Assembly (NCBI GenBank): GCA_050084515.1
Contig: CM114271.1
Coordinates: 36,518,001-36,582,000, forward strand
Reading direction: 5' to 3'
Length of the DNA: 64,000 nucleotides
Source of the DNA: Blasia pusilla
Taxonomy: Eukaryota
Shown: one piece after another, positions 1 to 64,000 of the stretch
Layout of the letters: the number at the start of each line of letters is the position of its first letter
Position numbering within the stretch: the first letter of the stretch is position 1
Program-made: the position numbers and the translations under genes
Notes under the pieces: generated by a model
Database searches by the model: none
The model's input: only the letters and a program-made list of their open reading frames with translations
What the model was told of the DNA's origin: nothing

Positions 1-515
1 CCAACTCGCACTGCATCCAACAACACCGTTGGTCCAATCCAAGACCGCACCTCATGAACACTCGCGATCATCCGGGTCCGAGTGTCACCCAACAATGGAA
101 CATTCTCCAGAATGTAAGTAAGAGCATGTGCCTGATGAACCTAAAGATGTCGTAACACCCATAACATCTCCCAAAACAATCGAGACCTAGGGTTGTGTAA
201 TCCCTCACCACGACCAGCACGTATATGACCCTAACATGGCCATCCAGCAATCACCAAATCCACAGGACCAACCCTCTCAAGGTTCGGCGCCCCCAACAAT
301 GCAATGTGTGACGGCAAAGCACGCTGGTACCCACGAATAGCTGATGGCGGCAACAACTCAAGATATCTCCATATCCACTGACCAATATGTCGGGATGAGA
401 CTCTCTGGGCCGTCTCATCTTGCTCCACATACACGTATCTCCGCACAGAAATACCGGCCTGCAACACTGTAGCCAAACCCGTGCTAATCCCACTAAAGAG
501 ATCTAACACACAAAT
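1..515 (-). pseudogene. C5 cytosine DNA methyltransferase catalytic domain within the retroelement ORF, with two in-frame TAG stops
   Basis: Manual in-frame translation: VLDLFSGI (motif I), VYVE (II), VDLVIAGWPC*G (IV, catalytic PC), PRSRLFWEM (V), YILENVP (VI), then LLDAVRV at the window edge. Stops at 231-233 and 141-143. Confidence 0.88.
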
Positions 516-2177
516 TCCCTCCGGCGGATACTGCCATACAATGGGTGTAGTATCCAAAGGGGATAACCCAACTGGACCAGAAGTAGGAGTCCTCCGTGGG
601 GCCTCCTCTTCCTCGTGAGGTATAACAGCCTCACACCAAGCCTCCTGCACTAGGCGATCAGCCTCCTGTCGTAGTGCACCGCCTGAACTCCAAAGTGGCA
701 CATCCAACGATGAGGATGCCACTGCTGCAAAACTAGGGACCTCCTCTACCTCCTCATGCACAGGAGAATCCATAGCAGAAAGATTACCCTCCAAAAAGTC
801 TCCTGGCCAAGTGACTACTCCACTAAAACCAGCCACAGATGCTAACACCGTTGGGGAAGACCCTCCTAGTCGAGCCCCATAAATAAATCTCACAGGAACG
901 TGGCTCATACGTCCATCCCTAGACTTCCAACCAGGTCTATAAGACGCTGTCTCAGTCCAGTAGTCCATCTGAAAACCCATAGGGTACAATATTGCTCCTC
1001 CAACTAGTACATCATACGACTCGGCTGATGTGACCACTACACCTGCTCCCAACCGGGAGCTATCAGTCGCATGATCTGGTCTCAACTGTACAAACAACTT
1101 CTCCCATGTCATGAATTGAGATCTATCATTGGCTCCTGCAAGTGATGTTTGAATCTGTAATGGGCAAGGCTCAAGCTCTGACCTCCGAATACCCAAACCA
1201 ATACATGCCGCCTTTCCCAACATCAAAGGTTGAGCACCAGAGTCTAACAAGACTCTATCTGGTCTATACACATGTCCTGTAGGACTCACCAATCGGAATA
1301 TCCCACTCCGATTGTCCAACATACATACACCAGGTATAAGCCTCTCACAATCAATGGCTGGTCGGACTGGTAATGCATCCATCTTTGCCGTTGCTGCGTG
1401 CCAAGTAGCACTGGTACTCAATACTACATCTGACATAGAGGGTCGCTCCACAGCAACACCCTCATCCACCTCAGCACGTGTAGCAGTAACACCCCCAAGT
1501 TCACACAACGTGGCTGCTAGCTGAAATATAGCAGCTAAGTCAACTCCTAAAGCCATCAGCTTCGTGGCCGAAAACAATGGGGATCCCAACACTGAAGTTT
1601 CCATCCGCAATACTGCACTGGATGCTGCATCCGTGTCTACTACACGCGATGTAGATGCCTCAGTCCCCATTGTCGGCTCAATAGGTTGCGTAGGAACCAT
1701 GGATGGAGTCCTAAGCATCTCAGACAACAAGAATGGCTGGGGAAGCCTAGCCTGCCTCCCAGCCTCACCCCTATGTGGGTCCAACTCCACAGTAGCACAA
1801 CGTGGCTCTGACGCTTGAGTGGCTCCTCTTGTAATTGCAGCTGATGCCTCAACCTGTGCTGCACTTGCCATATAAGAGAGATCATCCCCTCCATAAGAGG
1901 TGGAAGCCCCTGCTCCTGAACCTGATCTATGCTGGATACCAGCCATAGTAGCCACCTTCTGCTCCAACTGCTCAATCCTGGCAGCCATAGTTGACTCTGT
2001 CGTTGTGGTAGGGGTAGCCACCGTAGGCTCTCCAACCACTGGTCCACCTCTACCACCCCTACCACCTCTACCACCTCGGCCTCTCGGAGCTACTCCACCA
2101 CGGTCGCGGCCTGATCTCAACTCTGGATGAAGATCATTTCAACGCTCTCGAGGATGACATGGTCTCCCGCAATGATT
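1..2177 (-). mobile_element. Decayed LTR retrotransposon (probably Ty3/gypsy) polyprotein: gag zinc knuckle, RGG linker, aspartic protease, C5 DNA methyltransferase; runs off the left edge
   Basis: 629-aa ORF 231-2120 has the retropepsin motif VLLDSGA. The same frame upstream reads NHCGRPCHPRER*NDLHPEL (CCHC knuckle remnant, last Cys now TGA). Downstream it enters methyltransferase motifs. RT and integrase are not in view, so the superfamily is inferred. Confidence 0.8.
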
Positions 2178-9195: not shown

Positions 9196-9218
9196 TATAC
9201 ATACATACATACATACAT
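9159..9218. repeat. (TA)n/(TACA)n microsatellite
   Basis: Directly visible. Confidence 0.95.
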
Positions 9219-9249
9219 CTATGATACAACCATTATCTCCAAGGAACCC

Positions 9250-10660
9250 TATCAAAATGGAATATCAACCATAACAAATACCACCCTCTTGAATAAACTC
9301 ACAAACCAACATGATGGTTGCATCTTTGACAAACCTACACAATATTTGACCTCAAGCTCATAGGTAAAATTTCTATGCTTGTATCTAATCTAGCTCTCAT
9401 CTCCATTCGAAAGATGAAACAATGCATGTTGATGCAAATGATCCTTCTAAACCATACTATCCCAATCTTCAATACAAGGATTTCAATATGTTACACCTTA
9501 CATATATGTAAAATCAAGTGTCTTGCAAGAATATATAGTGTTGTTGGTGTTGTATTTTATAAGTTTCTTATGGACTGAACCTCCTAGTCCTTGGATGATA
9601 ACCAATGCCAAAAATATTTGTATACCTTAACGTGTTTCTATACTCATAAATTGGCAAGTTCTTAAATGCATGTACCTACAAAAACCTAGTATCTCATTGA
9701 GATAGGGGGTATAGTGCATTTTGGATCTATATTTGTCCTTATTAATCCATTAATCATATATGTTCAACCATCTTTGATTCCCATATCCATAACGTGTGTA
9801 TTCCTTCCGATATGCGATTCCAAACTATCTATAGGATCCAATTGTGCTTACTAGCACGCATTACGCTTAAAACGAACTCTATCAATCACTTCAATGGTTG
9901 ATGATCATCAATGGTTATGAAAGGATTGCAAAAAAAATAACACCTGAACTGTGCCACGACCTATATTATAGCCAAGAACTCTCCCTTGTATTAATTTTAC
10001 TTTGATTCTACAAGGAATAAACTCATATATGCCATAATGAACTCGTTTTCCTCATTATCTTACTAATTAAGCATGACTCCCAAGTCAAAAAAATATACTT
10101 CAGTTTGTGTGTAATTGGAAAGGATTCCCTATGAAATATCTAAAAAAATAGGCAAGGAAGGCAACATGTCCTTAAGCATTGGAAATCCTACGTCTTGATC
10201 ATCTCCCTACTGCCCAACATGATCAAGTCTCATTAGAAACTCTAAACATTCCATGATTGCACTAACCCCATAACATATCCTCGATATAAGTTTTTCTAAC
10301 CTAGAAATTCTTTGACTTGACTTACATGTATATGACATGTAATGCACACAATAACCCTCTATCTTAGTTTTTTTGAACACCTAATCCACATGGGTATATG
10401 ATATAATGCGAGCACTCTATTTAATCTTGGAAGAACGTGCGCCTTATTGCATTTCATGAAATAACAACCATGAAAACATGTTCTCCAAGTATTTCTCATT
10501 CTCCTCAATTTTAACACTCTAGCATACTAATATAAAGATCTCAGTCCGAGAGATTAAGAATTCCCCCTGAAACTTTTATCCCTCTTTATATACTCTTGAA
10601 TGATCCATTCCTTTTACACAAAAAACCAATGATGTTGAGTCTCTTCTTCATTCATCATAC
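9250..10660 (-). mobile_element. Heavily degraded Ty3/gypsy pol remnant (RT connection/RNase H region)
   Basis: Minus-strand fragments QVKEFLG, LGVML...EENEFIMAYMS and LAII*VVAQFRCY among many stops and frameshifts. Boundaries approximate. Confidence 0.55.
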
Positions 10661-11008: not shown

Positions 11009-11855
11009 CTCACATGTTTTCTTATTCATGTGCATTACCATGCTAAGCCTCACTCTTATTTAAGAACAAATATTCTCACTGAAATGTTATAGAACAAAGT
11101 ATTGAATCATTAATGATATATTAGCTAAGTGGTTTTAAGGTTCCAAGGTGGCTTCCTATAATCGATATCCCTTTTAATAAACTAATTTTTTATTGACTTG
11201 ATGGAAACCTTGTTGCCTTGTGCACGTATGTCAAATTTATTCCACTTATTATTCACTAATTCTATAAGTATTGATTGAAGTTGTTGATGAGTCATTGCAA
11301 ATAGTTAAGTCTATGACACCCATCCTAGCAGGGATCCAAGAAGCGATTCATGATTACGGGTAAAAGGAGGAAAGGTCTTGTTGAGATCCACCAAAGTTAA
11401 ACCTAGACTAGATAGTCACAAGACTACAAAGGATAGCAGAACCTATCGTGAGACTAATGCTAGTCAAGATAATTTTGTATTGAGACTAAGATTTGGATAG
11501 AAGGGGTATAACCTCTCACAAGGATGAGGGCGAAGCAAGAAAGATGAAGTTGAGCTTGGAGTCTAGGGCAAGTAGCAAAGAAGATGGGGTTACTCAAGAA
11601 GAGCAAGAGTCCATGAGACTTGTCAAGAAATACGAAGATTGGCAAGACAACCGTGAGACGCAAAATGGCACGAGTTGATACGCAAACTAGTTGGCCATAA
11701 GACACAAAAAAGTTGGTATGAGGTTCGAAGATGATTTTGGGGAAGTTAATATAGGTAAATTCTTCCAAGAGATTCATCCAAGTCATCTCGGGGGTTAATT
11801 TGTCAAAAGTGGCTTGCAAGACAAGCACCACGTTTGTGGTGTAGGCTAATATTGA

Positions 11856-15631: not shown

Positions 15632-16545
15632 GTTAAGTGCTAGGGAAGATTTTCCAGTATGTAGCTTAGGTGGAATAGATGCAATTTTATCACGTATATT
15701 TTTAGTAGACATGCCCCGATAGTGATTAGATTTGTCACGTCTTCTATGATAGATCGATGAGATCTAGTAGAGCGTCTTTGCGACTAGTGGAATCTATGCT
15801 CAAGAGGTCAAGGATAACCTATTGAGGCCTCGGGAAACCTAAGAGAGCAGGTTTTCCCTTCGTTTCGGCTTATTGGAGCCATATTGAGGAACTTACTATT
15901 TTAGTTATGTACAGTTTTGAGTATATGGTCATTTTTCTATTTTTGGTAAGTATCCCTTGACCTCCTACATTAGGTCAAGAGCCAAGGAGATGACTTGGGA
16001 GCATAGGTTATCATGGAGAGAGCTTGGGAGAGGGGAAGGGTATACCTCAAGGAGAGAGAGCTTGAGAGCTCATTCTCTATTTGTTGAACCTTTTGGCATG
16101 AGGCGGCGGAGCTATGGTGTTTCTTGCCTTGTGTGTGTATAACCTAAGCCTCTCATTAGAAGAGTGGGTTTGGTTTGACATTGAGAGAGACATGTGAGAG
16201 TGCACACATTTGAGAGCTATGGTGTTGAGAGAGATTGGATCTTGATTTAATTGGAGATCTTTCGGTACTTCCTGTCTCGTTTTTTGGATGTCATGAGTAA
16301 GCATAGGATCGTGCGTGTTTGTGTGTGTGTTTGGTGATAGCGATGTATGTTGTGTAGCGATGTGTATGCGCATGACAAATCAACCAAAGATTTATTTTGC
16401 TTTGTGATGGAAATATCATGAGGATTCTTGAAATTCAAGGGAAATTTTCACATTCTTGTGAGTAGAAAAAATGTGACTAAATCACTAAAATATATTAGAA
16501 ATCTTAAAGATACAAAATTGTTTAGTTTTTTTATGTGCATATAGT

Positions 16546-53600: not shown

Positions 53601-54626
53601 ACCTCCATTCTTGATGAACTCCACACCAAGAAAGTACTTGCGCTCCTTGAAGTCTTTTAACTCAAACTTTCCATACAATTGAATTTTGATCTTATGTATC
53701 ATTTACTCGATGCTACTAGTCACAATGAAATCATTTTCTCATCTTATTCTTTTGCGTCGACGACATAGAGAGTCAGCGGGCTGTTCGGATGTAACTTTGT
53801 CTCGAGATGTCGGATGAGGTTGGCGATAGATCCGTTGGGTTGGGAACATCATTTATGACGATTTCCCTTTTTTGGTTTTAGTCCGTCAGGTGACCCGTTG
53901 ATCGAGTCAACGATCATCCGATAACTGTGCACGTAGGTTATCATTGGTAGTGTTATAAGAGTGAGAGAGATGGCTTTCTCAAGCCCTCTTTCTCATATTG
54001 AGCCTTAGGAGCGCCTCTCTTGCATAGACGTGTGTGGGTGTGTAGGGGTTAGGATGCTAGTGTCCGGATTCCCTCATAGCGGAGGATGGATGTGGTTCAA
54101 TATGCCGATGTAGATTCATGAGTGGAGTTTTAGGCTCGATGAGCCATTTTTACTACTCTTGATTTTACATGAGAAAGATGCGAGGGGTCAGGGAATTGGT
54201 TGTTTGCAGGTAGGCAAGCGAGTTTCCTTGGTGGGGAGCCCATGGAGACATGTGTGTGATGTTTGTTTGTCATTTTTATGTTCAGGAGGACGTGTGCGGA
54301 AGTGCTGTCCATTTTTCTCATATTTTGCTTGTCGTGCGCATACATATCGCTTTCGACAAACATACATACAAACACGCACGATCCCATGCTAACTCATGGC
54401 ATCCAAACAACGAGATAAGAAGTACCAAAATATCTCCAATTGCCCCCCTAGTTGGTGGTTAGGTCCCCCTAACTCCAGATAGCCATCTATCCCTACCTAC
54501 CATGACATACATCTCTTGGACGCTAAGAGCAAAAAGGTCGGGTGCTCATGTGGTCCCATCGTTAGTGGCCTTCTTGTCATCCATGTCACAGCCACAAGTC
54601 AAAATCTAGAACTACCTACTCTATGT

Positions 54627-55630
54627 ATATCTGGGACACATCCATCATCCCTCAAGAACCCTAGTGAGAGGTGGCCTTAGACATGCCATATGCCATCCTC
54701 TCGAGCATCCATCACACACTAGCATAGTGGCTGCACCATGGGCAAAACCACACAACATACACCGTAAGCCGGCAAGAACTACTGCTAAGCTCGGATCAAC
54801 TGTATCGTCAATGTTCAGAAGATGACATGACGCACAGTTACGCTCATGGTCCTTCCAAACCATACCATCGCGTCCCTCCAATAAGAAAAAACCGGATGGC
54901 AAAACCTCACGCACTCTCAAGATGGTGCGCCCTGCAGTCACATCCAAGGTCGTGGGTGCCGTTTGCTGCAAGTAGACATAGTCTCCTTGATGAAACCTCC
55001 GGATAGTAGGTTGATAAACACCTCCCCGAATAATCGCATACCTCAATGTATCCCGATGCTGCGCAATCGCCAAGTTCTCAAATGCCATGGGCATCACTCT
55101 CTAAAACAACTCACCCCTCTAAGAACATGCTCGCATCCATACATCAGGGTCATCAAGGTTCAATACCTCACCAACTTCTCGATGAATGGCCATAGGTAAA
55201 TCTGGCTCTCGGCCATAAAGTAGTAAGTACGATGAGAAAGACGCTAAGGATGCTTGCATGCTGAATCTGTATCCCATCGCCAACCACGGCAAGTGGAGGT
55301 CCCAATCTCCTAGGTGACCTCTCTGCAATCCATACTTGCACAATCCTCTCTTCACCGTTTGCACAACCCGCTCCGCTAGTCCATCCGCCTCAAGATGATC
55401 TCGCGAAGAAGTGCGGTAGTCGATCAACGCCTAATCGCACAAGGCCTGAAACTCCCCGCAAAACTCTATACGCTGGTATGTCAACACTTCAACTGGTGCA
55501 CCGTAATGACTCGACACTTGATCTAGGAAGGCATACGCTATTCCCTCACTCGCTTTGTCAGGAAATGCAACCAACTCACTTTGAGAAGTACTCGACCATA
55601 ACCAACACATAACGACTTTGACCAAGTGTA
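54627..55630 (-). pseudogene. Ty3/gypsy integrase core and C-terminus fused to a PHD finger
   Basis: Integrase: RYVLVMVEYFS, HYGAPVEVLT, ADGLAERVVQTVKRGL, WDLHLPW, LLYGREP, GDYVYL. PHD: CMLC...CDGC...WHMAC...EG*WMCPRY (C4HC3 with a stop and final C>Y). Confidence 0.88.
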
Positions 55631-56499
55631 CTCCATTCAGTTATAGTTGGCAACTCATGTAGTCAATTTATTTTATTGAAATGTTGGTATGGACTCATGT
55701 AGTCATGTACTATGACTAGAAGAGTAGAGTTACATGACTACTATAAAAGCATACACAATGAGTTTAGTCACGAAGATATGACTATGTGAGTAGCGGAAAT
55801 TATGTAGTCATTGCAACAGAACTGCATGAGTCATACAATTATGACTAGAGAGAACTTGAAGCTTACTACTTTAGTTTTTGAACCGTACTGTGCTAGTTAT
55901 ATTGATATGACTAGTGGGAATATAAATTTTGGATATTTTGGAATGTTTATTATGCCTTTTGAACGTGCAAGAATTAATGGATCTGAATTATTGAAACCCT
56001 CTTTTCCATTTATATGGTGAACACTTAAGCGTTCACCTTAACACATAGTATAATTTTGAAAAAAGCGCACATAACTAAAACAACATCATATATCCAGAAA
56101 CATGTCAACTCAACTATATAGAAGTAGCACATGAGCACTAAGTTGTTACATTGAGTAGTGGCATCTTGATGTAATCAAGAAACTACATGAATTTTCTCTG
56201 AGTTTAGAAAGAGATGTAATAAGAATATCTTGCTACAAACGAAACATACACAAGCAATTAACCAAGCAAATAATGAAAACCTACTCTTGAAACAGATTTT
56301 GAGGGGTGGAATGTCACTAAAGAGTAGCTTCCATACACCAAATTACAAAATGAATCATTATTACATGGGGTTATAATCCAAATAGATAAAAAAAATAAAG
56401 ATCAAATATAGTAGGGTTTATGATCTCATCTTGAAAGAGCAAGAGAGATTATGTCATCCATGAAAATAAAGTTATTGCACCTTAGATAGTTGGGTGCCA

Positions 56500-60870: not shown

Positions 60871-63800
60871 TCAAGCTTCCTTCCTCATTACCACTTTCCA
60901 TCCTCCACCCTCATCGGCATCTCCATAAAACACTTGTTGCACTTGTGATGGGAAAACAACTGGCTGGTGATCTAATGGCTCGCATGACCTCAAGTTGGCC
61001 AACAGAAAACCCTCCTTATTTAATTTCATGGACCCTACTCTCGAATCCCAATGTGCTTTAACCCACCGCCCTTGCATTAGTATTATGGGTTGTTCTACAA
61101 TCCCATAATCAAGTAAGAGAATATCAACCAACACCCCAACATATGAGTATAAACAATTATAGTTGGAACTTTTTTCATCAACAAATATTGCACCTATTCC
61201 ACTATCATAAGTGGAGAAGGGTGTTGCACCACTTGGCCCTTCTACCCTGAAGTGGTTTCTGTAGGCTTTCATACTCTTGAATGACAAAACCCTACTATTA
61301 GGAGGTATAGATAATGATAGTAGGTGAGCATCAGGATCTTTTGAGTTGTCAATTGCATCCTGTGTAATGGCAAGGCGAATCCACTTTTCAAAAGGAATGT
61401 CTCTCGAACATGACTGATATTTCGTGTTCAATAACAATGTTAATGGTATTAGTACATTATTTTGTATTTAATGTGTCAATACCAAAATAATATACACTTT
61501 GAGAGTCCGAACCGTAATTAACATAACTATAACCTTGAAAAGCATATATTGGAGAGTTTTACTTTTTCCAATCAACCATGACCTCTGTATTATGCAAAAC
61601 ATAATGATGTGCTAAGTTGATCATTTCTCTCAAAAGTTGAATTGGAGTGCCCGCACCTTCTAGCTCCTCACCAGCGACCCCCTCTTCCTCCCCATCATCC
61701 CACACTCGCGTCCGCACGTCTTCAAACCTTTTCATATACTCTGTCACAAACCCTAATGCCTCGTCCTTCACATACCCTTCTGCCATACACCCCTCTGGCC
61801 TAGCTTTAGACCGTACATATTTCTTCATGTACCCCATATACCACTCCATTAGATACATCCACCGCTCCATTGGATACATCCATCAACATGCTACTGGCCC
61901 ACACATGTCCAATTCTTCTACGACATGAATGAACAAATGTGTCATCACGTTGAAGAAAGATGGAGGGAAATGCATTTCAAAGAGACAAAGGGTTATGGCA
62001 GTCTCTTCCAAGAGTTTGTTGAATAAAGCTGGATCATATACCTTTGTACACACCATTCTAAAAATTCCAGATAATCTAATAACCACCATTCTCACATAGT
62101 CCTTCAGAAGACCACGAATGCAATAAGGAAGGACTTGCTGAATGAAGACATGCTAATCATGTGATTTCATATTGCCCAATTTTTTATTAACCACATGCTT
62201 GGAGAGTTCTCCACAATATCCAGATGGCACCTTCAAGTTTTGAATCCTCGAAAGGAAAGTGTTCAAGTCATGGGGAGAAAGAAAATAATCGGAAACTGGT
62301 TTAAGCAAAACTTGGGGTTTACTAGGATGGGATTGCAACCACAAATGGGATCGAATCCCACAGGCCTCCAAATCTCTCCTTACTTTCATAGTATCTTCAC
62401 TCCAAATAAGGTCTTGACTAGATTCTCAACGATATTCTTCTCAACGTGCATTACATCTAACATATGACGTATAAGCAAATTCTGATTGTATCGTCAAGGA
62501 AGCATGGACATCTCACAACTTGAACATAGTAGCTAATATCCACAATCAAATCAAACAAAAGCTATCCTCCTCTATAGCCACTATTTCATAACATAAAGAA
62601 TAGATAATATAGAGAGGAAGCAGGATACTGGCCAGTAAGGAAACGAATATAGTATACTCAGCCTTTTCACCCCAGTTCTCTTGTAGGGATCAGTAGGGCT
62701 GTCTTCTCGACCCCCACTCTCATCATATGTATGTTTTTCATTTGCCCATCCAATAATCTCTCCGAAAAGTAGTCTAGGCACGCGTGGTCTAAGTTCTGCA
62801 CTCCCGTTGAAATGAGATCCATACCTACGGGTCCTCCATGGATGGCTCAATGGGAGATATCGACGATGACAACCGTATATGGGCTTGCCAAAAGACTTTG
62901 AAAAATCAGAATCCACTCGAGGCCCGCATATAGGACATCCTAGTTTTCCACCGTGGCTCTGCCCAACTACAGTTCTGTATGCCGGGTCATCATTTATGGT
63001 CCATAGTAAGGTAGCCCTGAACATGAAGTTCCAACTTACGCCTACCTTCTGAACGTCATGAAATTGAACCCCTTTCCACATTTCTTGGAACTCTTCCACT
63101 GGAGGAAGCAAGTATGTGTCTATGTTTTTCCCATTTACACTCTCCTTTCCTGGTATGATCCAAGAGAGCATCACAAAGAATTTTTTTGGCTGGAGCCAGT
63201 AAGGCAAGTTATAATTAACAAGAAGCACGGGCCATGTTGACCACAAACTCGACTTGTCTGAAAATGGATCCACTCCGTCCAAAGCTAGTCCAAACCTGAA
63301 ATTCCTCTTCTCCTCGGCAAAGTCTGGATATAAGTTGTCCATGTGGCGCCATGCCTTGCAATCAGCTGTATGCCTTACTAAGCCATCCTTGCTCTGATTC
63401 AAGGGGGCCCAGGTTAACAATTCAGACAACGTCCTGCATCTAAACATACGTCTCATCCGAGGTATGATAGGAAAATGCCTTAATACCTTACATGGTACCA
63501 ACGTTCTACCCACTTTCCGGAACCTTGGTTTCCCACATAATGGACAGATCTCAGCTTCATCCAAATCACCCCAGAGTAAAACACATCCAGCCAAACACGC
63601 ATGGATACTGTTGTAACCTAAGCCTAGTTTACCAATGAGTTTTTTTGCTACATAATAACTCGGTGGCGCCATGTTCCCTGTTGGTAGGACCAACTTACAA
63701 AGGAGTTTCAAAAATTCGTCAATAGCTACATTTGGGACGCCATGGGTGGTTTGAATGTTGAATAGTAACATGAAAAAAGCTAAAACATATGTTTTTGCTG

Positions 63801-63987
63801 TAGGGAACAAGGGTTTAGGGTAGAGGAGCTTGCAAGCTTCAGCAAGCTCCTCATATTCATCTCCATGATTGAATAGTGGTTCTTTGTTTGATATTCCCGG
63901 TTCAGGTAATTCATCAGATGGGAGAGATGTCTCTTCAGTCTCATCCTCATGTATATGGTCGTATTTCTGGAAAATATCATTGAGCAT
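60871..63987 (-). pseudogene. CACTA TnpD-like transposase (Transposase_21 core plus DUF4218/DUF4216-like regions), intron-containing, with stops
   Basis: IHACLAGCVL..CPLCG, LRHFPIIPR, FGLALDGVDPF, WSTWPV, NMKSHD, FPPSFFNVMTHL, WMYLMEWYMG..K.YVRSKARPEGCMAEGY, PVVFPSQVQQVFY. Confidence 0.92.
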
Positions 63988-64000
63988 TTTATGAACGTCA

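Follow-up and report, generated by a model that had tools for sequence, protein, structure and literature searches.

Gypsy retrotransposons bearing a Dnmt3-like DNA methyltransferase (DNMT) within the Pol polyprotein have been described in the alga Klebsormidium nitens as KnitGypsy-Dnmt3 (de Mendoza et al. 2018, PMC5890265). The acquisition was regarded there as confined to the K. nitens lineage, and a figure legend assigns to the elements the 'repeat structure of a DIRS element with Gypsy domains' (PMC5890265). A 2025 survey does not go beyond repeating the Klebsormidium Dnmt3-Gypsy report (PMC12344493). In the present study, a gypsy integrase fragment ending in a PHD finger was analyzed in a 64,000-nucleotide stretch of the Blasia pusilla genome (assembly GCA_050084515.1, contig CM114271.1, positions 36,518,001 to 36,582,000; hereafter the window). 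By its published description, KnitGypsy-Dnmt3 is the closest described relative of this element and has in common with it the Dnmt3-like DNMT in a Gypsy Pol and the DIRS-like repeats, found here in the metagenome loci L031 and L051. Unlike KnitGypsy-Dnmt3, the element lies in a genome whose nearest named relatives for it are liverwort proteins, from Marchantia and Calypogeia.

Fusions of PHD and chromo domains to transposon proteins are generally known (bioRxiv 10.1101/2021.11.30.470311). Chromoviruses such as MAGGY are described in the same source as carrying likewise a histone reader at the integrase end, presumed to be a chromatin tether. Their reader is a chromodomain, whereas the family studied here has a PHD finger in that place; Pfam matched no chromodomain in the window copy, and a PHD finger and a chromodomain are listed together for P0065, a distant relative. 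A further green-lineage element, Gypsy-7a_cRei of Chlamydomonas reinhardtii, has a Gag-Pol with a PHD finger and long terminal repeats (LTRs) drawn with sub-parts, and targeted insertion is suspected (PMC9940879). It resembles the window family by this description, and no methyltransferase is reported for it in the part of that article that deals with it. Our search, to which subscription journals and figures were closed, found no paper on a Dnmt3-PHD Gypsy family in land plants or on its PHD finger. As far as the literature seen goes, the wider spread, the PHD finger, the two domain orders and the transcription reported below extend beyond the print record.

The minus strand of 54330-55640 is very probably the dead 3' end of one Ty3/gypsy-type retrotransposon copy, whose intact family comprises gag, protease (PR), a Dnmt3-like methyltransferase, reverse transcriptase (RT), RNase H (RH), integrase (INT) and a PHD finger together with DIRS-like split direct repeats (Table 1). 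The domain content, the breaks, the architecture in relatives and the transcription of paralogs were established directly. A minus-strand reading of 54613-55640, with X at each stop, gave 342 residues in a single frame (P0001). By translation and homology, the product of 54627-55577 comprises the C-terminal half of the integrase core, the integrase C-terminal region and the PHD finger. The earlier note on this DNA had called the region a gypsy integrase ending in a PHD finger, and this was borne out by the Pfam match to PF00628 and by relatives with the order RT-RNase H-H2C2-rve-PHD.

Table 1. Coordinates of the features in the window and in metagenome locus L001.
Feature	Sequence	Position	Strand	Basis
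Terminal repeat unit B1, 112 nt	window	54330..54441	-	aligns to L031 repeat B
Polypurine-tract-like CTAGGGGGG	window	54443..54451	-	identical to L031's
3' untranslated region (UTR)	window	54452..54620	-	blastn
TAG, polyprotein end	window	54621..54623	-	relatives stop there too, 2-5 residues past last Cys
PHD finger, C4HC3	window	54627..54761	-	Pfam PF00628
Integrase C-terminal region	window	54762..55340	-	invariant columns in alignments of relatives
Integrase catalytic core, C-terminal half	window	55341..55577	-	alignment with relatives' PF00665 rve region
Scrambled integrase-core remnant	window	55578..55640	-	translation; L028 and L029 align from residue 4
Fragment A: gag end, aspartic protease, Dnmt3-like DNMT motifs I, IV, VI	window	3..2177	-	protein homology, Pfam
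Third copy, AT-rich, heavily decayed, internally deleted	window	9215..10308	-	tblastn with P0002 and P0005
Second B repeat, B2-like, no polypurine tract ahead	window	16249..16377	+	sequence match to B1
CACTA-type transposon genes	window	61562..63999	-	Pfam Transposase_21 (tnp2) E=1.4e-55, DUF4218 E=1.2e-15
gag-PR-DNMT (P0075)	L001	4000-7772		tblastn
RT-RH-INT-PHD (P0005)	L001	7881-10948		tblastn
Match to fragment A	L001	4954-7152		64.5% identity
Match to integrase-PHD fragment	L001	9998-10951		74.2% identity

The window copy was broken at several places. Three in-frame TAG codons (55431-55433, 55119-55121 and 55101-55103) and one TGA (54645-54647), which interrupts the PHD finger, gave four internal stops in 54627-55577, all on the minus strand. 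Colinear homology to the family began at residue 22 (55577), near an indel upstream of which about 30 nt of homology continued in a different frame; the family motif VMVE.FSK was partly readable in another frame of the scrambled remnant. DNA and RNA reads of paralogs parted from the window sequence exactly at 55577 and went on with the family motif. The claim that the finger is completed by reading through one TGA in a mildly decayed copy was right about the TGA, but the three TAG codons, the indel and two substitutions to Tyr come in addition.

The integrase portion retained the catalytic Glu of the DGLAER motif (55371-55373), whereas in the alignment the second catalytic Asp is replaced by Tyr (55476-55478). 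The first catalytic Asp and the H2C2 finger fall beyond the truncation. In the C-terminal region, the motif IAQHRDTLRYA, specific to the family, lies in a helical stretch that is followed by a small beta-barrel (GDYVYL...ILRV...). The Pol order of RT, RNase H and integrase was found in relatives, and the window copy retains the integrase end alone.

The PHD finger occupies the last 45 residues, which read CMLC, 10 residues, VCDGC, SRG, WHMAC, 14 residues including the TGA, and WMCPRY. The spacer after CMLC had earlier been counted as nine residues and is corrected here to ten. With the TGA read as X, Pfam PF00628 matched residues 294-337 at 38.2 bits and E=1.5e-9, exceeding the 24-bit cut-off. 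The window copy retains seven of the eight zinc ligands, these seven being invariant across 13 aligned relatives, and has Tyr in place of the eighth, while all eight were conserved in each of 12 aligned relatives. Among 68 loci containing the region, eight ligands stood in one frame in 40; by our count, 13 of these 40 had an in-frame stop inside. Judged by these sequences, the finger of the family is a true PHD and that of the window copy is broken. It was always placed directly behind the integrase C-terminal barrel.

Relatives were collected as 72 longer proteins with E<=1e-3 from 3161 candidates, and nearly all of them were ordered RVT_1, RT_RNaseH, Integrase_H2C2, rve and PHD. The named ones came from Marchantia polymorpha, Calypogeia fissa, Haematococcus lacustris and K. 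nitens. The closest was Mp_7g09570 of M. polymorpha (P0004), with 73% identity to the integrase-PHD fragment. KFL_009030040 of K. nitens has the order PR-DNMT-RT-RH-INT, and the K. nitens protein P0057, of that same order, matched the fragment with E=2.4e-62 and 51% identity over 73% of the query.

The second fragment of the window, fragment A (P0074), is a separate copy of the same family; it is truncated at its 5' side and by the window, running off the left window edge. Its Pfam DNA_methylase match (E=3e-4) reached 20.8 bits, under the 22-bit cut-off. Over its whole length, fragment A was 59-66% identical to three Marchantia proteins (P0075-77), with 66% to Mp_4g09160. P0075 is a gag(CCHC)-PR-DNMT protein with a Pfam DNA_methylase match above threshold, and P0076 extends into the start of RT. 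Solved relatives of the DNMT domain were DNMT3A/B/C in 25 of 27 matches. Both window fragments also met in a single Marchantia protein, P0004, in which residues 1-258 matched fragment A (window 240-1037, 61.7% identity) and residues 333-608 matched the integrase-PHD fragment (window 54624-55451, 72.8%).

Metagenome contigs were scanned with the integrase-PHD alignment. At least 596 stretches matched, of which at least 450 code for a relative; 80 loci were taken forward to tblastn with both window fragments and two intact relatives (P0075 and P0005). Locus L001 carries one colinear gag-PR-DNMT-RT-RH-INT-PHD element matched by both window fragments, and both fragments were colinear in L017, L018, L023, L028, L029 and L031 as well. 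Upstream sequence of 5 kb or more ahead of the integrase-PHD match was available in 27 loci, and 23 of these had the DNMT there on the same strand. These results substantiate the earlier suggestion of a gag-PR-DNMT-RT-RH-INT-PHD family. An intact element with a matching integrase and no DNMT, which would have spoken against that suggestion, was seen in none of the loci examined. The Dnmt3-type methyltransferase within gag-pol thus holds for the family; the 5' part of the integrase-PHD copy in the window is missing.

The Marchantia DNMT segment, used as a BLAST query, was present in 29 of 73 related proteins, whereas precomputed Pfam annotation marks a DNMT in six of the 72. Therefore, domain tables undercount the DNMT.

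Two domain orders occurred. The clade of the window has gag-PR-DNMT-RT-RH-INT-PHD, and distant relatives have RT-RH-DNMT-INT-PHD (P0029, P0032, P0036, P0038, P0043, P0045, P0047, P0049 of H. lacustris, P0052, P0054, P0056, P0060, P0068 and P0078; loci L061 and L069). The DNMT segments were 35-41% identical between the two orders. Internally deleted derivatives were found in L006 (1545-6351), L007 (6131-10936) and L026 (6430-10624), where gag-PR-DNMT is joined straight to the integrase C-terminus and PHD finger, with RT, RNase H and the integrase N-terminus lost. The junction of the deletion was identical in L006 and L007, and Marchantia P0004 looks alike.

In the distant relatives P0039, P0059, P0044, P0025 and P0036, and at 10350-11405 of L061, an extension of about 300 residues follows the PHD finger. 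It contains motifs resembling those of amino-methyltransferases (DPxxGxG ... SSPPF); a Pfam search matched the D12 N6-adenine methylase at sub-threshold level only (E 0.06-0.11), and a PDB search gave nothing meaningful. DIRS elements are stated to carry a methyltransferase-like domain in the relevant part of PMC9940879, and from its motifs the extension could be a second link to DIRS, which is unproven.

The 3' end of the window copy is that of a retroelement with unusual terminal repeats. Directly past the PHD stop, the 54442-54584 block was found in 18 of the 80 loci, with 72-77% DNA identity over the full block and partial matches of up to 87%. The B1 unit aligned to 10988-11244 of L031 (E=7e-21) and also to the B2 of L031, and was 85% identical to window 16249-16349. 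A complete A1 ... B1-A2-B2 arrangement was present in L031 (2484-2827 / 11130-11698) and L051 (1481-1787 / 11021-11681). Self-comparison of 23 loci gave a B1/B2 pair in four more and none in 17, many of which were truncated or decayed. The ends of the A unit resemble TG...CA, and a TATA box lies within it. The polypurine tract precedes B1 rather than A2. Left of 54330, no recognisable match to the A repeat of L031 or to a second B unit was found, and family homology stopped after B1. Two identical flanking LTRs were not seen; relatives have A1 ... B1-A2-B2 and the window copy has B1 alone. The expectation of loci colinear for both fragments between two LTRs therefore held for the colinearity, and the ends are split direct repeats instead.

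PAT-like DIRS and Ngaro elements have split direct repeats of the form A1 ... B1-A2-B2 and a tyrosine recombinase. The terminal layout of the window family is alike, whereas its enzyme is a DDE integrase with an H2C2 finger. If this combination is real, it would imply a route of replication or integration unlike that of textbook LTR elements.

The B2-like repeat at 16249 lies downstream of a TATA-containing stretch (15950-16248) that may be an A repeat, and 15950-16377 as a whole resembles in sequence a solo end or the A2-B2 end of another copy. Most genomic reads across the start of the B repeat (411 reads with loose ends, compared with a depth of about 135 continuing into the 3' UTR) shared their upstream flank with the 16249 copy.

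The nearest solved chains to the PHD finger, by sequence search against solved structures, were CHD4, DPF3 PHD2, PHF12, KMT2C/D, ATXR5, KDM5A/B PHD1, PHF21A, BAZ2A/B, UHRF1 and AIRE. Similarity to the PHD fingers of CHD4, DPF3 (PHD2), KDM5A/B (PHD1), PHF21A, BAZ2A/B and AIRE ranged from E=1e-19 to 1e-8, with the common motif LLxCDxCxxxaromatic-HxxCLxPPLxxxPxGxWxCPxC. These solved fingers belong to host chromatin proteins, whereas that of the family belongs to a transposon polyprotein. CHD4, DPF3, KDM5A/B and most of the other nearest solved PHDs are readers of the unmodified H3 N-terminus, without K4 or R2 methylation. ING, BPTF and TAF3 are readers of H3K4me3, and they were not among the 60 best solved-chain matches listed. 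This similarity suggests, as a tentative proposal, that the PHD finger of live copies may read the H3 tail lacking K4 methylation.

By analogy with the chromodomains of chromoviruses, we infer that the PHD finger behind the small C-terminal barrel probably tethers the integration complex to nucleosomes in live copies. Reading of H3 without K4 methylation might then steer insertions off active promoters, a step held with less confidence than the tether itself. The Dnmt3 domain could act on the element itself by methylating its newly made DNA, as de Mendoza and colleagues reportedly proposed in 2018 for the new element copy; the algal elements were reportedly assayed there for de novo CG methylation (PMC5890265). 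In its broadest form, the proposal is of a clade with reader (PHD), writer (Dnmt3) and split repeats that extends from chlorophytes (Haematococcus) and charophytes to land plants, occurs in abundance among environmental eukaryotes, has two domain orders and is still transcribed here, and whose PHD finger would read H3K4-unmethylated nucleosomes and so couple insertion into silent chromatin with self-methylation. We regard this whole as doubtful.

Several observations weigh against these readings. Pfam rve did not match the window fragment even at E<=1, so a HMMER check proposed earlier for rve and PHD succeeded for the PHD finger alone. The integrase assignment is based on homology to rve-bearing proteins because Pfam rve is silent: the fragment was 65-73% identical to proteins whose aligned stretch is PF00665 rve, with PF17921 Integrase_H2C2 ahead of it. 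A structure model of the relative L011, covering the integrase C-terminus and PHD finger, was poor overall, with a mean predicted local distance difference test (pLDDT) of 59.2 and a predicted template modelling score (pTM) of 0.31. By blocks of ten residues, the PHD finger reached a pLDDT of 77-86 and the barrel strands (residues 219-251) 76-83, against 46-53 for residues 201-220. A Foldseek search with this model returned CCD-CTD chains of retroviral and Ty3 integrases and Tudor-PHD cassettes at TM 0.14-0.26; these matches agree with the domain calls and contribute little. The K. nitens proteins P0057 and P0062 end before the position of the PHD finger, and a PHD finger is mentioned neither in the text of PMC5890265 nor in three of its supplements.

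Most sampled copies were dead, because the PHD finger was damaged in 28 of the 68 loci (12 further loci were cut by contig ends) and only 10 of 80 loci were open across the integrase C-terminus and PHD finger. An acidic run such as DDAD before the third Cys, present in the more distant clade and in many solved PHDs, is missing from the clade of the window, and the histone specificity suggested here is based on similarity and on what the solved PHDs bind. The three copies in one window provide no statistic on insertion preference. The window's two fragments do not overlap, and that they belong to one subfamily, as the sequences from outside the window support, is not provable from the window, as had been stated at the outset.

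A different role for the PHD finger would be to serve the methyltransferase. Like the ADD domain of animal DNMT3, it would sense unmethylated H3K4 and license or direct methylation by Dnmt3, with integration untargeted. This is compatible with a tether and does not exclude it. The presence of reader and writer together in 23 of the 27 testable loci is in its favor, as are the preservation of the pairing in both orders (the DNMT either ahead of RT or placed between RNase H and the integrase) and the preference of the nearest solved fingers for unmodified H3. However, the PHD finger is fused behind the integrase barrel, and in the clade of the window over 1,100 residues separate it from the DNMT; the usual cleavage of the polyprotein by the protease would leave it on the integrase. 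It is also established that integrase C-terminal readers such as chromodomains act in targeting. We therefore consider a role in methylation unlikely as the explanation of the PHD finger, and tethering of the integrase remains the preferred reading.

The two GC-rich window fragments might also stem from different families, an integrase-PHD family without a methyltransferase and, at 1-2177, a methyltransferase family with another integrase. They lie 52 kb apart without overlap, and 44 of the 73 related proteins had no DNMT segment. However, most of these 44 were open frames starting at or after RT, nearly all of them short, and the sole one with at least 400 residues before RT was a distant match without a PHD finger. 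Among loci with enough upstream DNA, the DNMT was present in 13 of 15 close relatives (>=60% identity) and in 10 of 12 distant ones; the two remaining close loci were truncated, and all four loci without a DNMT (L005, L009, L062 and L074) were 5'-truncated within or at the start of RT. Both fragments share their best-matching loci and the same Marchantia family. Separate origins are accordingly very improbable, and a common family for both fragments is retained.

Reads of four sequencing runs from the same organism, one DNA and three RNA-seq, were mapped on 53800-56000. In the DNA run, 1201 reads mapped, 43 of them at least 99% alike. DNA reads covered the B repeat to a depth of about 480 and the 3' UTR to about 100, compared with about 3.5 at 53800-53947. 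A single-copy depth near 3.5 fits the 43 reads at least 99% alike, and the B repeat has on the order of 100 copies, since its depth of about 480 stands against about 3.5 nearby. RNA reads were found in all three runs (63, 103 and 65), and 0, 7 and 5 of these were at least 99% alike. Those of 95-99% identity fell on 54318-54539, 54836-55131 and 55502-55649, with the first mate on the + strand almost throughout. Provided that the libraries keep to the usual strand convention, the RNA corresponds to the sense strand of the element. Because the RNA reads differ consistently from the window, it is paralogs that are transcribed and not the window locus. In the Marchantia annotation, a gene model with a PHD-type domain corresponds to a related sequence, and RNA reads map onto the region. 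A domesticated host gene for an integrase-PHD protein is nevertheless rejected as next to impossible, since the frame is interrupted by four internal stops and runs into the 3' UTR, polypurine tract and terminal repeat of a retroelement; the indel, the substituted catalytic Asp and zinc-ligand positions and the paralog origin of the reads count against it as well.

Just left of the element, 53948-54200 showed a DNA depth of about 34 against 3.5 and is moderately repeated. RNA reads there also had consistent differences.

The family is one of few cases of a transposon carrying the host's own silencing enzyme. The 2018 description concerned one alga, and the family is now known also from this genome, beside liverwort-like sequences, from protein models of Marchantia, from Haematococcus, where the DNMT lies between RNase H and integrase, and from at least 450 metagenome stretches. 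The conserved PHD finger at the tip of the integrase makes the choice of chromatin and the purpose of transposon DNA methylation testable questions. Furthermore, some models labelled 'DNMT' or 'PHD-type' in the gene sets of land plants are parts of transposons.

The window is a transposon nest with at least three remnants of the family and an extra B repeat within 64 kb. The third copy retained an RNase H (E=9e-17), followed by the AFKNLPIYEYRNTLRY motif and a PHD remnant (integrase C-terminus/PHD E=1.9e-7). GC content was 0.48 in the 1-kb bin 54001-55000, which contains much of the integrase-PHD fragment, and 0.50-0.51 in 1-2000, while most neighbouring bins had 0.29-0.41. The two fragments are thus GC-rich as the earlier note had observed, but they do not stand apart from the other remnants in the way it supposed, because the AT-rich decayed remnant at 9215-10308 belongs to the same family.

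To the right, tblastn found no further family match between 55641 and 64000. AT-rich sequence cuts the integrase at about 55640 and leads on to the CACTA-type genes; from about 55641 rightwards it is a CACTA-type or another insertion that truncates the integrase. The CACTA-type genes include a long open frame that leaves the right edge of the window.

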